A DNA stretch of 64,000 nt from Clostridiales bacterium (GTDB lineage Bacteria > Bacillota > Clostridia > Christensenellales > CAG-314): the NCBI GenBank assembly GCA_022508345.1, contig JAFLVK010000001.1, forward strand, positions 597,841-661,840, given 5' to 3'. This document shows, one piece after another, positions 7,158 to 55,447 of the stretch. Each line of letters opens with the position of its first letter. Position 1 is the first letter of the stretch. The translations under genes and the position numbers were made by a program. A model generated the notes under the pieces. It saw nothing but the letters and a program-made list of their open reading frames with translations. It did no database searches and had not been told where the DNA came from.

Positions 7158-7235
7158 CGCGGGGTAGAGCAGTCCGGTAGCTCATCGGGCTCATAACCCG
7201 AAGGTCGTGTGGTTCAAATCCCGCCCCCGCAACCA
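7158..7235 (+). tRNA. initiator tRNA-Met (CAU), CCA encoded
   Basis: Cloverleaf readable by eye. C1:A72 mismatch (cgcgggg/ccccgca) and three G-C pairs closing the anticodon stem (tcggg CTCATAA cccga), both initiator hallmarks. The 5' T-stem strand has 6 nt (gtgtgg) against 5 (cccgc). Confidence 0.85.
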
Positions 7236-17149: not shown

Positions 17150-18163
17150 TTAGTTTATTTTTACAATTTTTGATTTCAGTCCCGTATCAAAGGGGTTTAT
17201 CTTCGACATTTCCTTGTCCAGGTTGTCGAAGCTGATTGTTGCGCCTATCAATGGGTCGATATTGACGGTATCCGTTACCAACAGATTGATTGCCGACGAG
17301 TAGTTGCCTGCGCCATTGTAAACGCCGAAGATGTTGAGGTGCTTGCGACATATTTGCGCTACCGACAGCTTGCTGTCCTTGTTGCTGTAGCCTGCAAGGC
17401 AAATGTTGGCATTGAATGTTACCACACTGTAAACGTCTTTCATGTTGATGTCGCTGTTGGAAAGCAGTATCAGCTCCTTGCATTTTCTGCCACCTGTTAC
17501 AGCAAGTATTTCCTCTTCTACGTCCGTTTCGTCGGGGTTGAAGCAGTACATTACTCCCAATTCTCTTGCCATATCAAGCAGTTCAACGCGACTACTGATG
17601 AGTACGGGCACCGCTTGATAGTAAGCTATCAATTGAGCCAATATCAAGGCTTGCTTGGTTTCGCCGAATATTGCAATGTGGCGACCTTTTTCCAAATTCA
17701 GCGCGTCGCAAATGTTGAGACAAAATGCAACCATGGGTACAAATAACGCCTTTTCATTGCGAAGTTGATCGGGCAAGGTGTGTAGTTGAGAGTAGGGCAA
17801 ATCAATAAAGTTGCAAAGCAGCCCATTGCAGTTGTAACCAAGCTCCTTCAAATTGGAGCAATTGGTGTAATTGCCACTTTTGCACTCATCGCAAATCTCG
17901 CATGGAACGCACGGTTCAATTACCACCCTGTCCATTTTGCGCAGGATTGGATTGTCGCCGTGAACAACCGACACAACACCCACAGCATATCGCCCTATGA
18001 TAAAGGGATATTTGCGCTTGGCTGCACCGGTGTAAATTTCGATATCGGAGTTGTTTAACAAAACCTCTTCAATCTTGACCTTTATTAAATTTTCAGTTAT
18101 CTCGGTAGGTTGGGATTCCTGCAAGGTAAGTTTGCCGGGCTCCTCAAGTATCCAAGCTTTCAT
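17150..18163 (-). CDS. medium-chain (zinc-type) alcohol/polyol dehydrogenase family protein
   Basis: 337 aa. Structural-zinc Cys cluster CVPCEICDECKSGNYTNC and an MDR-like layout. The catalytic GHE motif is non-canonical (GRYAVG). Confidence 0.6.
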   Translation of the reverse strand: MKAWILEEPGKLTLQESQPTEITENLIKVKIEEVLLNNSDIEIYTGAAKRKYPFIIGRYAVGVVSVVHGDNPILRKMDRVVIEPCVPCEICDECKSGNYTNCSNLKELGYNCNGLLCNFIDLPYSQLHTLPDQLRNEKALFVPMVAFCLNICDALNLEKGRHIAIFGETKQALILAQLIAYYQAVPVLISSRVELLDMARELGVMYCFNPDETDVEEEILAVTGGRKCKELILLSNSDINMKDVYSVVTFNANICLAGYSNKDSKLSVAQICRKHLNIFGVYNGAGNYSSAINLLVTDTVNIDPLIGATISFDNLDKEMSKINPFDTGLKSKIVKIN

Positions 18164-18174
18164 AAAGCCTCCAA

Positions 18175-18271
18175 TTTAGCGATTTTTAAGCATCACAATA
18201 CTGTGTTGCCTTTACGTTTGCCCTCGGTCAAGCCGCAGGCGCCTTGTCTTGCTCGCTTCTAAATCGCTAAA
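18175..18271 (+). repeat. intergenic structured repeat, copy A (short form lacking the central hairpin)
   Basis: Core ttttaagcatcac...gctcgcttctaa is flanked by the locus-specific inverted arms tttagcgattt/aaatcgctaaa. It aligns with copies B and D. Confidence 0.7.
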
Positions 18272-18478: not shown

Positions 18479-19126
18479 ATGAAACTGCAATATCTTGGAC
18501 ACGCAAGCTTTCGCATAATTAGCGAGATGGGAACTACAATAGTGTGCGACCCGTACAAAAGCGACTGGGTAGGCTTTGACATGGCACGCGTAAGGTGCGA
18601 TGTGGTAACAATGTCACATCATCATGGGGATCACGACTGTATGGAATCCATCATTGGTTCACCTGCCGAGCTGGACGTGGAAATAGCCTGCGCTGCAGAC
18701 GACATTGCCATTGAAAGCATTGAGACGTTCCACGACAGCGAAAAGGGCGCAAAGCGTGGCAAAAACCTTGTGTTTACATTTCTGGTAGACGGGCTCAAGG
18801 TTGTGCACATGGGTGACATTGGCTGTTTCGACCAACATGTGGTGGAAAAAATAAAAAATTGCGATGTACTTTTGCTGCCTGTTGGCGGCACGTTCACTGT
18901 GGACGCTGCGGGTGCCAAGTGGTACGTTGATAACGTACAGCCCAAGATTGTAATTCCCATGCACTACAAAACGGATGAGCACAGCTTCGACGTGGACGGT
19001 GTAGACAAGTTCCTGTCTTTGTTTGCAGCGGAAGCGGTAACGGTCAGTCCGTCCGACACGTTGACATTGTACGATGCTCCCGATAACGAAGCGCCCCAAG
19101 TGGTGGTTTTGCAGCGTTTTAAATAA
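18479..19126 (+). CDS. MBL-fold metallo-hydrolase
   Basis: 215 aa. HHHGDHD motif. TGgTACAAT promoter and aaggag RBS upstream. Confidence 0.75.
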   Translation: MKLQYLGHASFRIISEMGTTIVCDPYKSDWVGFDMARVRCDVVTMSHHHGDHDCMESIIGSPAELDVEIACAADDIAIESIETFHDSEKGAKRGKNLVFTFLVDGLKVVHMGDIGCFDQHVVEKIKNCDVLLLPVGGTFTVDAAGAKWYVDNVQPKIVIPMHYKTDEHSFDVDGVDKFLSLFAAEAVTVSPSDTLTLYDAPDNEAPQVVVLQRFK

Positions 19127-19888: not shown

Positions 19889-19977
19889 GTCGCCCTATTG
19901 GCGGAGAGAACAGGATTTGAACCTGCGGAGGCTGTTAACCTCGCACGCTTTCCAAGCGTGTGCCTTAAACCGCTCGA
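19889..19977 (-). tRNA. tRNA-Ser (GGA), long variable arm, CCA encoded
   Basis: Reverse complement reads GGAGAGATGGTCGAGCGG...CACGC TTGGAAA GCGTG...GGTTCAAATCC...CTCTCCGCCA. Confidence 0.9.
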
Positions 19978-20086
19978 CCATCTCTCCAGGATGGTCAACT
20001 GTTTTTGGTTGCCTACATAGGATACCAAAATTTTGCAAAATAGTCAATTGTTATTTGTACAATTTCGAAATATTACTTTTTGTTGG

Positions 20087-20942: not shown

Positions 20943-21125
20943 ATGATAACCAAGGATATGAAAATTGTAGAAGTTTTGCAAGTTAAGCCGGAATCTGCTC
21001 AAGTTTTCGGTAGCTACGGCATGGGTTGCATTCACTGTCTAATGGCTCACCAGGAAACAGTTGAAGAAGCAGCTGCTGCTCACGGTGTAGATGTGGAGGA
21101 GATGCTCGCCCAACTCAACGCTTGA
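20943..21125 (+). CDS. DUF1858 (hybrid-cluster-protein-associated redox disulfide) domain protein
   Basis: 60 aa. MKIVEVLQVKPESAQVFGSYGMGCIHCLMAHQETVEEAA is typical of DUF1858. Confidence 0.7.
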   Translation: MITKDMKIVEVLQVKPESAQVFGSYGMGCIHCLMAHQETVEEAAAAHGVDVEEMLAQLNA

Positions 21126-21244
21126 GCGGTTATAAGCATCGCAATACATTGTTAAACTTCACATTTTATCGGGTCATGTACGTCTAGTACACTCCCCTTA
21201 AAAATGTTCGTTTGCCTCGTCTTGCTCGCTTCTAATCGCTCAAG
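21121..21244 (+). repeat. intergenic structured repeat, copy B (full form)
   Basis: Outer 12-bp helix cttgagcggtta/taatcgctcaag overlaps the upstream stop codon. Core ttataagcatcgcaatacattgtt... Central hairpin ggg-tca-tgtac-gtcta-gtaca-ctc-ccc. End core gctcgcttctaa. Confidence 0.75.
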
Positions 21245-21445
21245 CGGGTACTGTACAAGTGACTGCCACAAGCAGACGAATAATCTAACTATTGATATGC
21301 AATACCGAAATGGCTCCCCAAAGTACCGGGGAGCTGTTTCCGTTTAAAGACTGAGATGCTGTAAAATTTCAAAATGCGGTATTGACTTGATGTGCTTTCA
21401 ATGGTACAATAATAGTAGAAAATCTGTTAATAAAAAGGAGACTGT

Positions 21446-21922
21446 ATGGAACCTGAACGCGTGTTTACTAGAGGCTTGGAAGTAATGGAGGAAAATTTTA
21501 GTCACATGGTGGAAATGAGCTTGGCATCATCAGCCAACGACGTGGTGGCGGTACGCGACGTACACGCTTACTATCACGAGGGCAAGATGTATGTTTTGAG
21601 CAAAACTACCAACACATTTATGCACCATATTGCAGTTTGCGCAAATGTTGGACTGTGCCACGGCTCACACAACATGCAGGGCGTTGCAAGGTCTTTGGGG
21701 CACCCATGTGAACCGCAAAACGAAGAGCTGCGCAAGAAATTGAAAAAGCAATTTTCGCTCAATTACACCGATTACGTTACCGAATCGAACCCCGATATGC
21801 GGATAGTGGAAATCACGCTTACCAATGCGGAAACGTATACGCGTTACCACCGCTACGAGATAGACTTCGTGGCGAAAACAGCAGTGCGCGACCACACTGA
21901 ACCGCTATTTGTATACAGATAA
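21446..21922 (+). CDS. pyridoxamine-5'-phosphate-oxidase-like (split-barrel) protein, tentative
   Basis: 158 aa. Size and overall pattern resemble PNPOx-like FMN-binding proteins. No diagnostic motif verified. Confidence 0.35.
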   Translation: MEPERVFTRGLEVMEENFSHMVEMSLASSANDVVAVRDVHAYYHEGKMYVLSKTTNTFMHHIAVCANVGLCHGSHNMQGVARSLGHPCEPQNEELRKKLKKQFSLNYTDYVTESNPDMRIVEITLTNAETYTRYHRYEIDFVAKTAVRDHTEPLFVYR

Positions 21923-26322: not shown

Positions 26323-26399
26323 GCGCCCTTAGCTCAATTGGATAGAGCGTTGGTCTACGGAACCAAAGGTTAGGGATTCGAGCTCCTTAGGGCGCGCCA
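26323..26399 (+). tRNA. tRNA-Arg (ACG), CCA encoded
   Basis: GCGCCCT..GCTC AATTGGATA GAGC..TTGGT CTACGGA ACCAA..AGGGA TTCGAGC TCCTT AGGGCGC GCCA. Confidence 0.9.
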
Positions 26400-32243: not shown

Positions 32244-33605
32244 ATGAGAGTTGTTATCGTAGGCTGCGGAAAGGTGGGCAAAGCCATCATCGACAGCATG
32301 GCAGAGGACAAACACGATATTATCGCAATTGACAACAACAGCAAGGTAATTGAGGACATTACCAACACCTACGACGTAATGGCGGTGTGCGGTAGTGCAA
32401 CTTCACGCGAAATGCTGCTCACAGCGCGCGTACCCAAGGCGGATTTGTTCATTGCCGTAACGGAAAGCGACGAGGTTAACATGCTGTCCTGCTTTTTGGC
32501 GCGTCGAATGGGCGCAAAGCACACGGTTGCGCGTATTCGCGAAACGGAGTACAACGAGGACGGACTGGACTACATCATCAAGGAACTGGACCTGTCCATG
32601 GCGTTGAACCCCGAGCGTCTAACTGCCGAAACGCTGTTCGACCAGCTCAAATTGCCGTCGGCTGTCAGCGTGGAGTACTTTGCAGGCAAAAAACTGCAAA
32701 TGATGGAGTTAATCATCAAGGAAGGTTCACTACTGCAAAATGCCAGCCTCATGGATATACGCAAAAAGTGCAATGTACAGTTCATTGCATGTGCGGTGCA
32801 ACGTGACGAAGAGGTAATCATCCCCACAGGCGCATTTGTGCTGGAAGAGGGTGACAGGGTTGCCTTCATGGTAAAGCGCGGCGACACGCACAGGTTCCTC
32901 AAGAGTGTGGGAGCAGTGCAAAAGCAAGGCCGCGACGTAATCATCCTCGGCGGCAGCACAACCTCGTACTACTTGGCAAAGATACTTGCCTCCAACGGCT
33001 TTTACGTCAAGATTATCGAACGCGACGAGCAACGCTGCGAGGAACTGGCAGAAATACTGCCTGCAGGCGCAACACTGATTAACGGCGACGGAATGAACCA
33101 TGACCTGCTGTGGGAAGAGGGTATCAAATCGACGGACGCATTTGTTGCCTTGACGGGTACAGATGAGGAAAACATCCTCATTTCGTTCTACGCAACAAGC
33201 CAGGAAGTACCCAAGGTTATCGCCAAGGTAAATCACTCCGAGCTTGCCGAGCTTGCGGAAAAGCTGGGCTTAGATAGCGTAGTTACCCCGCGCAAGCTTG
33301 TTGCCGACGTGTTGACAAGATACGCGCGTGCACTTAAAAATACTCTTTCCAGCAAGGTTGAAACAATGTACAGCCTCATGGACGAAAGAGCGGAAGCGTT
33401 GGAGTTCATGGTGCTGTCCGACTGCAAGCTTATTGGCGTTCAATTGAAGGATATGAAGCTCAAGCCCAACTTTATCATTGCGGGAATCATTCGCGGTAAG
33501 GAAACGATAATCCCCACAGGCGACGACGAAATTAGGGAAGGGGACAGCGTAATAGTGGTTGCGACTGATGCGCACTTGTATGATTTGAGTGACGTCTTGA
33601 GGTAA
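32244..33605 (+). CDS. trkA: Trk potassium uptake system NAD-binding subunit
   Basis: 453 aa. Two RCK/NAD modules (VVIVGCGKVG and VIILGGSTTSYY). Confidence 0.85.
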   Translation: MRVVIVGCGKVGKAIIDSMAEDKHDIIAIDNNSKVIEDITNTYDVMAVCGSATSREMLLTARVPKADLFIAVTESDEVNMLSCFLARRMGAKHTVARIRETEYNEDGLDYIIKELDLSMALNPERLTAETLFDQLKLPSAVSVEYFAGKKLQMMELIIKEGSLLQNASLMDIRKKCNVQFIACAVQRDEEVIIPTGAFVLEEGDRVAFMVKRGDTHRFLKSVGAVQKQGRDVIILGGSTTSYYLAKILASNGFYVKIIERDEQRCEELAEILPAGATLINGDGMNHDLLWEEGIKSTDAFVALTGTDEENILISFYATSQEVPKVIAKVNHSELAELAEKLGLDSVVTPRKLVADVLTRYARALKNTLSSKVETMYSLMDERAEALEFMVLSDCKLIGVQLKDMKLKPNFIIAGIIRGKETIIPTGDDEIREGDSVIVVATDAHLYDLSDVLR

Positions 33606-33747
33606 TTTTGAAAGCACATTCATCGCGTGATGCGGGCTACGTGTGTCAACTGACTTGGTCACGTACGCCTAGTACGCTCCCTGCGGACAGATTGTCCCCT
33701 GTTGCCCACCTAACGCGCGACTGCACTCTCAAAAAATAGCTTTTTAA
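33606..33747 (+). repeat. divergent member of the intergenic structured repeat family (copy C)
   Basis: Shares the central hairpin with a compensatory change (gg-tca-cgtac-gccta-gtacg-ctc-cc at 33657-33680) and core-like ends ttttgaaagc / gctttttaa. The interior differs. Confidence 0.45.
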
Positions 33748-33766: not shown

Positions 33767-35299
33767 ATGAATTATAGGATGATATTTAGCACCTTGGGCA
33801 GGATTGCGATAGTGCTTTCTGTTCTCTTGGTGATACCGGCAGTGCTTGCGCTGAGCCTGGGTGAATCAAGCTGGTGGGCTATTGCTACCACCGTGGGTAT
33901 TTCCCTAGTTATCGGATTGGTGCTCATGCTGTGTATCAAGCCCAAAGACAAGGTGATTTTCGCCAAAGAGGGCTTGATTATCGTGTCGCTATCTTGGATA
34001 TATGTTTCGGCTATTGGCGCGTTGCCCTTTGTTATCAGCGGTGCAATTCCCAATTACATTGACGCTTTCTTTGAGATGTGCAGCGGCTTTTCCACTACGG
34101 GCGCAACGATACTTACAGGCGATCAAATTGACGCAATGTATCTTGTGGACAAGGGGCTTTTGTTTTGGCGAAGCTTTACCCACTGGATAGGCGGCATGGG
34201 CGTTATCGTATTTTTGATGGCGTTTGAAACGGGTTCGTCGGATAGGGGCATGCATATTCTCCGTGCCGAGATGCCCGGACCCATTGTGGACAAAATCGTA
34301 CCCCGCGCACGCAACACTGCGAAGATACTGTATCTGCTGTACATCGGCTTTACGGTAGCGGAAGCTATCGCGTTAATAATTGTAGGCGCTTGTACCAAAT
34401 TACCCAATGGCGAAATGCTGTCCTGGGGAGAAAATATATTCGATGCCGTTGTGCATGCTTTCGGTACGGCAGGTACGGGCGGTTTTAGCGTAAGGGGCAT
34501 TAGCATTGCCTACTACGGCGCGGCATATCAATGGATAATTACAGTGTTTATGATACTGTTCGGTATCAACTTCAACCTGTACTACCTAATGCTGCTCAGG
34601 AAGTTCCGTCAGGCGTTTGGATCGCGCGAGCTGTGGATATTTATTGCAATAATCGTCGTTTCTGCTACGGCATTGTCGATAAATATTGCAACGGCGGTAA
34701 CTGATTTACCGTTTAGAGATAACGCGCACGATGTAATTCGTCATTCGTTGTTCCAAGTGGCGGCGTTTATCAGCACAACGGGCTACAGTTCTATACCCAA
34801 CGGTTACAACATCAACAATTTCCCGTTGCTCAGCTTGGGCATACTGTTTTTGCTTATGTTTATCGGCGGTTGCGCAGGCTCTACGGGCGGCGGTCTCAAG
34901 GTTTCCCGCGTGGTTATTCTGTGCAAAGCGGTACAAAAGGAGCTTCGCCGTGTTCTTCACCCGCGACATGCCAACGCAGTCAAGTTCGAAGGCAAAATCA
35001 TTGCCGACGAAACGCTACACGGTGTAACAAGCTACTTTGGTTTGTACATGCTGTTACTCGCAGCAACCTTCATTGTGCTTTGCTTTGACGGTGGCACGGG
35101 TTTGAGTGTGGAAACAAACATCACAGCGGCAGTATCCTGTATCAACAACATCGGTCCTGCTTACGGTGTAGCTGCAAGCGGCTACTACATGTACAACTGG
35201 CTGTCCAAGATTGTGATGTCATTTGCTATGCTTATCGGCCGTTTGGAAATCTACCCGATACTACTGATGTTTTCCCCCACAACCTGGATAAAGCGGTAA
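33767..35299 (+). CDS. trkH: Trk/Ktr-type potassium transporter membrane subunit
   Basis: 510 aa, polytopic. Selectivity-filter-like GFSTTGAT, GTAGTGGFS and STGGGLK repeats. Confidence 0.85.
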   Translation: MNYRMIFSTLGRIAIVLSVLLVIPAVLALSLGESSWWAIATTVGISLVIGLVLMLCIKPKDKVIFAKEGLIIVSLSWIYVSAIGALPFVISGAIPNYIDAFFEMCSGFSTTGATILTGDQIDAMYLVDKGLLFWRSFTHWIGGMGVIVFLMAFETGSSDRGMHILRAEMPGPIVDKIVPRARNTAKILYLLYIGFTVAEAIALIIVGACTKLPNGEMLSWGENIFDAVVHAFGTAGTGGFSVRGISIAYYGAAYQWIITVFMILFGINFNLYYLMLLRKFRQAFGSRELWIFIAIIVVSATALSINIATAVTDLPFRDNAHDVIRHSLFQVAAFISTTGYSSIPNGYNINNFPLLSLGILFLLMFIGGCAGSTGGGLKVSRVVILCKAVQKELRRVLHPRHANAVKFEGKIIADETLHGVTSYFGLYMLLLAATFIVLCFDGGTGLSVETNITAAVSCINNIGPAYGVAASGYYMYNWLSKIVMSFAMLIGRLEIYPILLMFSPTTWIKR

Positions 35300-43460: not shown

Positions 43461-43536
43461 GCTACTATGGCTCAGCAGGTAGAGCACGTCCTTGGTAAGG
43501 ACGGGGTCACCGGTTCAAATCCGGTTAGTAGCTCCA
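43461..43536 (+). tRNA. tRNA-Thr (GGU), CCA encoded
   Basis: GCTACTA..GCTC AGCAGGTA GAGC..CGTCC TTGGTAA GGACG..ACCGG TTCAAAT CCGGT TAGTAGC TCCA. Confidence 0.9.
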
Positions 43537-55194: not shown

Positions 55195-55322
55195 ATTTCA
55201 CCTATGAGAGTATTGTAGCATAAAATAACATATTTTACAACCTCTCCGTCGTCCTTTCGGTCGACATCTCCTATTGTACGGGGAGGGCTTTGCTTTATAA
55301 AATAAAGTAAACATCCAGTAGG

Positions 55323-55447
55323 GGTGAGAGGTTAGAAACGAGGGAGACGAGGCGCACGCGGCTTGACCGACAGGAGTGTACTAGGCGTACATGACTGAGG
55401 ACAAACGCAAGTGCAACAATGTATGCCGATGCTTATAATCTCTCACC
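55323..55447 (-). repeat. intergenic structured repeat, copy D (full form)
   Basis: On the minus strand: outer helix ggtgagag/ctctcacc, core ttataagcatcggcatacattgtt, central hairpin cag-tca-tgtac-gccta-gtaca-ctc-ctg, end core ctcgtttctaa. It starts 2 nt after the peptidase stop. Confidence 0.75.

Follow-up and report, generated by a model that had tools for sequence, protein, structure and literature searches.

A dispersed family of covarying hairpin repeats behind stop codons in gut Clostridia

A 64,000-nt stretch of the Clostridiales bacterium contig JAFLVK010000001.1 (positions 597,841 to 661,840; hereafter the window) carries four copies of an intergenic hairpin repeat: copy A (18175-18271, + strand), copy B (21119-21246, +), copy C (33604-33736, +) and copy D (55323-55447, -). 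They had been noted in a first-pass annotation of the window and belong to a repeat family that is genuine and unnamed, of which relatives yielded about 55 further copies, on genomes and on metagenome contigs. In our favoured reading, which we give a probability of about one half, the family consists of non-autonomous palindromic interspersed DNA repeats, comparable to REPINs or to miniature transposable elements with inverted repeats (MITEs), that are passively co-transcribed into 3' untranslated regions (UTRs).

A typical copy is a rod-like hairpin of about 125 nt, the anatomy of which was taken from alignment A3 and the wider alignment A2. Its core, mostly 105-109 nt long and running from TTATAAGC to TTCTAA, is enclosed by a closing stem of 6-14 bp that forms the outermost part of the element and is free in sequence. 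Inside this stem lie two blocks, TTATAAGCrTCGCAATAC and CCTyGTCTTGCTCGCTTCTAA, which are near-invariant across species and pair imperfectly with each other: from the outside in, TTA/TAA, a T.C mismatch, AAGC/GCTT, a 3-nt/2-nt loop (rTC/TC), GCAA/TTGC, a second T.C mismatch, AC/GT, and a 6-nt/5-nt loop (TGyGTy/kCCTy) that is again conserved. Further in come a helix of 4 bp, the variable middle helix and an apical module. The fixed mismatches between the short helices are pyrimidine-pyrimidine on the gene-sense strand. At least two unrelated and interchangeable apical modules are carried on the same base, one reading GGTCAyGTAC...GTACrCTCC and the other CTTCGATrACCnAnAAGGTyrATCTCA. Short forms of the core measure 79, 87 or 102-104 nt, and the long forms of 130-132 nt contain a 26-nt mini-hairpin insert. 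This insert, TACTTCGTGCCGTGCAAGCACGGGGC, occurs at three different positions inside copies of relatives (L109 5679-5704, L114 1642-1667 and L133 2807-2832; such L-numbers denote the loci of relatives that were compared with the window), and is absent elsewhere among the loci examined.

All four window copies, and nothing else, were recovered by R1, a covariance model built from 39 copies, when the whole window was scanned with filters off. Copy B is full length (113.9 bits); its left arm CGCTTGAGCGG (21119-21129) and right arm TCGCTCAAGCG (21236-21246) form the closing stem around a 106-nt core (21130-21235), which holds the conserved 5' block TTATAAGCATCGCAATACATTGTT (21130-21153), the apical hairpin module GGTCATGTACGTCTAGTACACTCC (21172-21195) and the conserved 3' block GCCTCGTCTTGCTCGCTTCTAA (21214-21235). 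Copy D, on the minus strand, is also full length (106.6 bits), with the closing-stem arms GGTGAGAGA (55447-55439) and CCTCTCACC (55331-55323) around a core of 107 nt (55438-55332). Copy A is a short form (85.1 bits), with the closing helix TTTAGCGAT/ATCGCTAAA, whose arms (18175-18183 and 18263-18271) enclose 79 nt (18184-18262) that do not include the apical, or central, hairpin. Copy C is a divergent relative, scoring 15.6 bits (E=0.11) yet over a full-length span, and it combines the same rod-like layout and an apical hairpin (33657-33680) with basal blocks unique to itself. In pairwise comparison B and D align end to end, A aligns apart from the central hairpin, and C shares the central hairpin and the layout only. 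Each window copy is predicted to fold as a single long irregular hairpin, with z-scores against shuffled controls of -3.4 for A, -7.1 for B and -4.0 for D, and about 0 to -1.6 for C. The three shared sequence blocks of the first-pass annotation were found where it had placed them, with 0.00-0.01 matches expected from dinucleotide shuffles, and the closing helices it had drawn for A, B and D are as it described them. Its central architecture of 3 bp-TCA-5 bp-loop-5 bp-CTC-3 bp holds for B, C and D and is missing in A, and the compensatory inner-stem change between TGTAC/GTACA and CGTAC/GTACG in the window copies is real; relatives add TTTAC/GTAAA, CATAC/GTATG, TGTGG/CCACA and TTTGC/GCAAA to the inner stems.

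The pairing of the rod is maintained through changes on both of its sides. Covariation was assessed in the 24 copies of one subfamily that make up alignment A3, with 33 consensus pairs and 792 cells, and in these 94.1% of the cells are paired, compared to 77.6% in shuffled alignments. Both sides have changed in 21 of the 33 pairs, and the 124 cells with double changes stand against 35.1 ± 4.8 in the shuffles, none of 500 of which reached the observed number; the same 0/500 applies to four of the five covariation measures. When the partner column is slid by 1-3 columns, pairing falls to 34-49%. Even the conserved helices take part, AAGC/GCTT being swapped in relatives for AAAC/GTTT, ATAC/GTAT or AACC/GGTT, and GCAA/TTGC for GTTA/TAAC (five copies) or GAAA/TTTC, and the middle and apical helices covary as well. 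A single paired change can be seen between near-identical strains of the window's own species, where the closing stem of copy A reads GCGAT/ATCGC in the window and GCGGT/ACCGC in L012. Some minimum-free-energy folds instead give each block a self-hairpin, in a three-way junction; the swaps from GCAA/TTGC to GTTA/TAAC, which act across the blocks, contradict that fold.

So at what level is this complementarity kept? Changes on one side only are rare (8 cells, compared to the 124 double changes), and G.U is as rare as A.C, each accounting for 14 of the 792 cells; in the wider alignment A2 the counts are 39 for G.U and 27 for A.C. A strand-specific wobble signature, with G.U well above A.C, is therefore not present. 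Moreover, folding predictions favour the complementary strand in 38 of 39 copies, with a mean advantage of 8.3 kcal/mol, and the pyrimidine mismatches of the sense strand become G.A on the complement, including tandem GA. Taken together, the rare one-sided changes, the equal scarcity of G.U and A.C and the better-folding complement make the pairing look like Watson-Crick DNA complementarity, rather than the product of a typical wobble-tolerant RNA evolution. At the same time the asymmetry of the mismatches is strictly conserved across copies, which indicates that something tells the two strands apart.

The alternative is a cis-acting structured RNA that serves the host, in which a sequence-specific protein or RNase would bind the conserved U.C mismatches and loops of the sense hairpin and would stabilise or process the upstream mRNA. 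The closing stem would be melted by ribosomes as they terminate at the stop codon next to it. The strength of the covariation, the constant length of the core, and the invariance of the blocks across species whose flanks cannot be aligned all speak for such an RNA. The pair statistics and the better folding of the antisense strand do not, and neither does the lack of any relative in Rfam. We regard this alternative as less likely than the favoured reading, yet as a serious rival to it. The structured 3'-UTR or non-coding RNA family that had first been proposed for these copies stands as far as the family itself, its rod-like structure, its covariation and its sense position in 3' UTRs or between cistrons are concerned; the pair statistics carry no RNA signature, the complement folds better, and some lineages hold decayed copies.

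Among 51 distinct copies, 28 lie directly after a long open reading frame (ORF) in sense orientation only, one is antisense-only and four are ambiguous, the other 18 being second in tandems, at contig ends, or after a terminator. In 26 of the 32 copies behind a long sense ORF the offset of the stop codon from the 5' block is -16 to +3; in most copies the stop starts 7-16 nt ahead of this block, so that it falls within the closing stem or 0-5 nt short of it, and in six copies it is the TAA inside the element's own TTA-TAA-GC. Five copies adjoin the T-tract of an upstream terminator instead. Downstream, a gap of 20-190 nt separates the element from a terminator or the next start codon. The window copies illustrate this, and the earlier observation that B, C and D are located at stop codons proved correct: the TGA (21123-21125, +) of a 60-aa DUF1858 gene (20943-21125) lies inside the left arm of copy B, copy C has the TAA of trkA at 33603-33605, and copy D begins 1 nt past the TAA (55451-55449) of an M1 peptidase gene. 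A promoter-like site of the next gene (21446-21922), TTGACT-17-TACAAT at 21382-21410 (+), lies outside the element and assigns copy B to the DUF1858 gene's 3' UTR. Copy C occupies the space between trkA (32244-33605) and trkH (33767-35299), and copy A, which does not follow a stop codon, lies between the divergent genes for an ADH-like protein (17150-18163, -) and an MBL-fold protein (18479-19126, +), 2 nt from the Shine-Dalgarno sequence of the former. Pfam confirms these neighbours as DUF1858, M1 peptidase, TrkA/TrkH, ADH and MBL-fold.

From their position we infer that mRNAs carry the copies, as hairpins in 3' UTRs or between cistrons. That the element precedes terminators or the next start codon, so that it should be transcribed, again fits a cis-acting RNA, as do the 28:1 preference for the sense orientation and a stop codon 0-6 nt away or inside the stem. 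The antisense placement of copy A in a 5' region does not suit such an RNA, and the upstream genes share no function: judged by eye from their translations they are unrelated housekeeping genes, among them queA (an identity that Pfam confirms), ilvE, lysS, an SMC-like gene, and genes for a sigma factor, RNase J and ribosomal proteins. Nearly all copies (35 of 36) are on the strand of their locus on which G exceeds C, and since this local skew follows gene direction, orientation to replication and to transcription cannot be separated in them. Copy D is the only discriminating case; the skew of the whole window assigns it to the lagging strand, whereas with respect to its own gene it is in sense orientation, a point in favour of an RNA.

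Where does the closing stem come from? The stems had been called completely different between copies, and they do differ between loci, but a yTTGAGnGr-like pattern is common to A, B, C, D and several relatives, and whole subfamilies carry one stem at many loci. The stem TTCTCCGC/GCGGAGGGA recurs after at least 13 different, unrelated genes, with the internal swaps CTCCG/CGGAG, CTCGG/CCGAG and CTCTG/CAGAG, and another subfamily has TTTTAAgGC/GCcTTAAAA. Where genes end next to the element, its left arm gives unrelated proteins identical tails (...KF* in L115 and in L152, ...[LI]K[AV]L* in L001 and in L010); the element thus reshapes C-termini and provides stop codons. Two situations coexist: some closing stems accompany the element from locus to locus, and others match the flanking sequence. 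The second situation is seen behind queA, the protein family of which always ends in GD[ASC][CM][LMFI][IVF]x. Here the left arm consists of the native C-terminal codons Cys-Leu-Ile/Phe, and it is the non-coding right arm that follows them: the arms of L154, TGTCTAATT/AATTAGACA, match perfectly, those of L005, TGTTTGATT/AATTAGACA, contain two G.T pairs after a synonymous CTA to TTG change in the Leu codon, and in L155, TGTTTGTTC/AAACAAACA, the right arm has been re-matched to Phe. The queA copy of L157 has no closing stem at all. Ten complementary bases cannot be due to chance. Their simplest source is fold-back template switching at the hairpin during replication, a documented process that gives rise to hairpins, lengthens them and makes compensatory changes in them (PMC8794818, PMC7202029). 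The 3' end and right arm are directly duplicated in L148, L154 and L008, and nested and tandem copies occur in L001, L006, L010 and L128.

Orthologous loci show the element present, absent and decayed. Downstream of the DUF1858 gene, the site of copy B, it is present in the window, L012 and L018, the copy of L018 combining the closing stem of the window with a D-like interior; L020 has a 5' remnant only, and L015 and L016 are empty, the stop codon being followed at once by an intrinsic terminator and by no palindrome. At the M1-peptidase locus of copy D, only the window holds an intact element. Its left arm and 5' block remain in L160 and L162, whose proteins are 88% and 81% identical, and no trace is left in L161, L163 and L164. 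Such decay in sister lineages at both loci is a further point against an RNA that serves the host. The remnant of L160 (1834-1904) consists of the 5' block TTCGGTATAC, then AAAAC, then a near-perfect inverted canonical block, GTATTGCGA, and resembles what a fold-back template switch would leave behind. At the queA-tgt locus five filled lineages (L005, L128, L154, L155/L156 and L157) all end in ...TTA TAA, the TTATAA of the element providing the final codon and the stop. The empty lineages L158 and L159 end in ATA TAA and GAA TAA, followed by an AT-rich spacer of 26-29 nt, and the QueA proteins, filled or empty, are 340-344 aa long and end at the same aligned C-terminal position.

These sites bear on a reading that the first-pass annotation had offered as its second interpretation, namely that the conserved core enters the loop of a palindrome or terminator stem already in place, and that this stem then serves as the closing helix. 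Closing stems that vary between loci around a conserved core, and some copies that directly follow intrinsic terminators, would fit such a process. At three orthologous loci the empty sites, which on this reading were expected to retain the outer palindrome, have none; a terminator or a short spacer rich in AT comes after the stop codon. Likewise, 474 kb of sequence contained no free-standing short hairpin with the common closing stems; on both counts insertion into pre-existing palindromes is rejected. Moreover, the stems have no T-tracts, identical stems accompany the core at many loci, and the left arm at queA is coding sequence. Already largely refuted, this reading is very improbable.

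Two side observations were made at these loci. First, the independent remnants in L020 (2094-2130) and L162 (2186-2215) both retain the left arm and 5' block and break just past ...CAATAC, which hints at a recurrent deletion or cleavage point. Second, in one lineage (L013 and L014, 3394-4135) two small helix-turn-helix (Xre-like) genes have been inserted and separate the DUF1858 gene from the gene that usually lies downstream of it. The post-stop site of the DUF1858 gene is occupied in some relatives by a second, apparently unrelated hairpin element (L013 3184-3300, also L014 and L019; L017 2832-2960) of the pattern GCTCGnGTAwTCG - stem - CGAACACACTCGyCT ... CTCTAA, which the window lacks. It would thus seem that the post-stop niche is used by several families of hairpin repeats.

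How could a palindromic DNA repeat stay complementary over its length while its closing stem follows the flank? Quasipalindrome template-switch mutagenesis is a replication error that perfects or extends inverted repeats, and introduces multi-base compensatory changes in single events (PMC8794818, PMC7202029, PMC5453318). The complementarity of the element is most likely maintained in this way, at the level of DNA. With one arm copied from the other, both sides of a pair would be fixed in one step, the stem would lengthen into the flank, including the last codons of the upstream gene, and partial duplications and perfected remnants would appear near the copies. The one-step change in copy A, the palindrome of L160, the 3'-end duplications and the nested and tandem copies fit template switching. 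It should be noted that this is a mutational process and not an element, explaining the stems and neither the conserved asymmetric blocks nor the dispersal. The fixed asymmetric mismatches, which give the strands distinct identities, suggest a putative trans-acting protein that would read one folded strand, either as DNA for mobilisation or as RNA.

Several observations weigh against passively carried DNA repeats. Template switching alone would erase the conserved mismatches, and their invariance calls for a selection that we do not attribute. The 28:1 sense bias and the stop distance of 0-6 nt are not predicted by a purely DNA-level selfish element, and fit an RNA role better. The two G.T pairs of L005, which stem from two synonymous transitions, pair on the sense strand only, as a cis-acting RNA would have it. 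The queA copy is kept across many species, with proteins that are 83-100% identical, perhaps a sign of purifying selection or of gene conversion among the copies. Lastly, the sequence around the copies revealed neither a transposase nor a target-site duplication nor a parent insertion sequence, and mobility is therefore inferred solely from the distribution of the copies.

The family has three unusual traits, which are its strict sense placement on stop codons, its conservation in asymmetric internal mismatches rather than at the ends, and a closing helix that can be copied from neighbouring coding sequence. A bolder and tentative proposal, which we consider rather unlikely, sees in it a strand-marked hairpin element of a kind not described before. 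It holds that this hairpin targets the last bases of genes and grows its closing helix by inverted copying of the flank, down to the final codons of the adjacent gene, and that the folded single strand is read by a putative dedicated protein, which either mobilises the element or uses hundreds of mRNA 3' ends as a regulon in a keystone family of gut bacteria.

Comparison with known systems shows partial likeness to several of them. The attC sites of integrons are imperfect hairpins of 57-141 nt that follow a stop codon, are co-oriented with the gene and are recognised as a folded single strand. The present family resembles them in its location directly after the stop of a co-oriented ORF (28 sense-only versus one antisense-only), in a structure that partly outweighs sequence, and in a strand identity set by unpaired bases. 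Unlike attC, its interior is conserved and its base free, and its copies are dispersed after housekeeping genes instead of forming cassette arrays beside an integrase. With no RYYYAAC/GTTRRRY core sites at the hairpin base in the alignment, and no arrays, an integron attC identity was rejected. The Correia elements of Neisseria, the enterobacterial ERIC/RU-1 and the pneumococcal BOX/RUP are co-transcribed hairpin MITEs of 100-170 bp. They share with the family a long imperfect hairpin next to genes and on mRNAs that can supply codons or stop codons, and BOX its modular make-up; they differ in having defined terminal repeats and usually a duplication of TA or similar, whereas here the termini are least conserved, no target duplication is seen and the internal helices covary. 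RU elements have been described in PMC2759123. An element derived from IS200/IS605 (PATE) would have a separate subterminal hairpin at each end and a constant target tetranucleotide at the left junction; the ends of the present family pair with each other and its left junction sequences vary, and that identity was rejected too.

REPINs are doublets of REP sequences that form hairpins and are mobilised by RAYT/TnpA-REP (PMC3116915, PMC8266576). Like them, the family consists of extragenic hairpins of about 100 nt in many copies, with two conserved inverted units around a spacer and no internal transposase, and it shows long vertical inheritance with the hairpin kept through paired changes. Unlike in REPINs, the conserved units are not palindromes and carry no conserved GTAG-type tetranucleotide, the host belongs to the Clostridia and not the Proteobacteria, and orientation and stop position are strict around a variable closing stem. 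A REP or REPIN in the strict sense is rejected, since self-hairpins of the blocks arise only in some minimum-free-energy folds and are contradicted by the covariation. A phmmer search for RAYT/Y1 among 1449 ORFs from about 480 kb, with an approximate IS200 TnpA query, returned nothing, this being a weak probe of a partial sample.

An ordinary cut-and-paste MITE, for instance IS630/Tc1-like with a TA duplication inside TTAA, would explain the blocks as transposase-binding inverted repeats, and the covariation as co-evolution of both ends with the transposase. Terminal inverted repeats are indeed present, albeit imperfect (the 5' block against the reverse-complemented 3' block reads TTAtAAGCatcGCAAtAC / TTAgAAGCga-GCAAgAC), and nearly all copies have ends of the form T-TA-TAAGC...GCTTC-TA-A. 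The element is small and present in many copies, it contains no ORF, and in five copies the change from GCAA/TTGC to GTTA/TAAC has occurred jointly on both sides. Against this, the interior is the most conserved part, while the outer ends, the closing stems, vary freely even within one genome; the middle and apical helices covary although a transposase does not require it, and the orientation bias is strong. No direct target-site duplication was found in the 8-nt flanks outside the stems of 48 copies, a TA/TTAA duplication is inconsistent outside the conserved T-TA...TA-A, and neither a transposase nor a long element with these ends was seen in about 480 kb around the copies. A classical MITE is rejected on the grounds of the poorly conserved termini and the missing duplication, and we hold the ordinary cut-and-paste version improbable.

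Functions as a regulatory sequence fared no better. A terminator in either direction is contradicted by the absence of a T-tract, with no terminator called at copy B and flanks containing 29% T on both sides. An outward promoter, composed of TTGCTC as -35 and a -10 at the junction, shows no enrichment at spacers of 16-18, the sole peak being the A-rich arm at spacer 13. Masking of a Shine-Dalgarno sequence by a GGAGG right arm is at odds with inconsistent distances to the start codon, and with other subfamilies that do not have GGAGG.

As to distribution, a scan for the exact pattern in one genome per species found 10 loci, in 10 genomes of different species, all of them metagenome-assembled genomes (MAGs) from human and animal guts that bear the label Christensenellaceae, Clostridia or Clostridiales. 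Scanning metagenomes brought in 45 more loci, about 30 of which have true copies. In 308 kb of DNA from relatives R1 detects 59 copies, and several contigs carry 2-3 of them within 10-13 kb. The family has so far been confined to gut MAGs of the Christensenellaceae and Clostridia and to gut metagenomes. BLAST against 72,556 plasmids and 50,697 phage records gave no match, and 88 matches to a 15-mer on viral contigs, none with the full element, are ascribed to chance. No gene recurs near the copies at the loci surveyed around them. The comparison with Rfam that had been recommended was run as well, and matched no named family: in four loci with eight copies no element was hit at E<=1 on either strand.

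The Christensenellaceae and related gut bacteria are heritable and associated with health, and their genetics have hardly been studied. At a density of about one copy in 16-20 kb, the repeat would reach the 3' ends of something like a hundred genes in each genome. Should the RNA reading be true, these would make up a large regulon under post-transcriptional control, with a conserved module for protein binding; if instead the element is read as single-stranded DNA, a new mobilisation system in Firmicutes would be at hand. Furthermore, the family is a possible natural case in which covariation of textbook quality results from a mechanism of DNA replication and not from RNA function, which urges caution in the covariation-based discovery of structured RNAs. 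The conserved blocks can also be used as markers to type and bin uncultured lineages.

A few minor observations remain. Tandem arrays of a variant with another 5' block, GAACGAGTTTGACATTTTGCAATAC, are present in L126 (1-233), L138 (2573-2800) and L145 (1379-1771), all from one metagenome project (Ga0224483). In the window, four tRNA genes (7158-7232, 19902-19987 on the minus strand, 26323-26396 and 43461-43533) are the sole matches to Rfam 15 at the gathering threshold. Between copy D and ligT's conserved promoter (within 55195-55322), some 100 nt have no counterpart in relatives; this segment contains more small inverted repeats and may be the debris of other elements.

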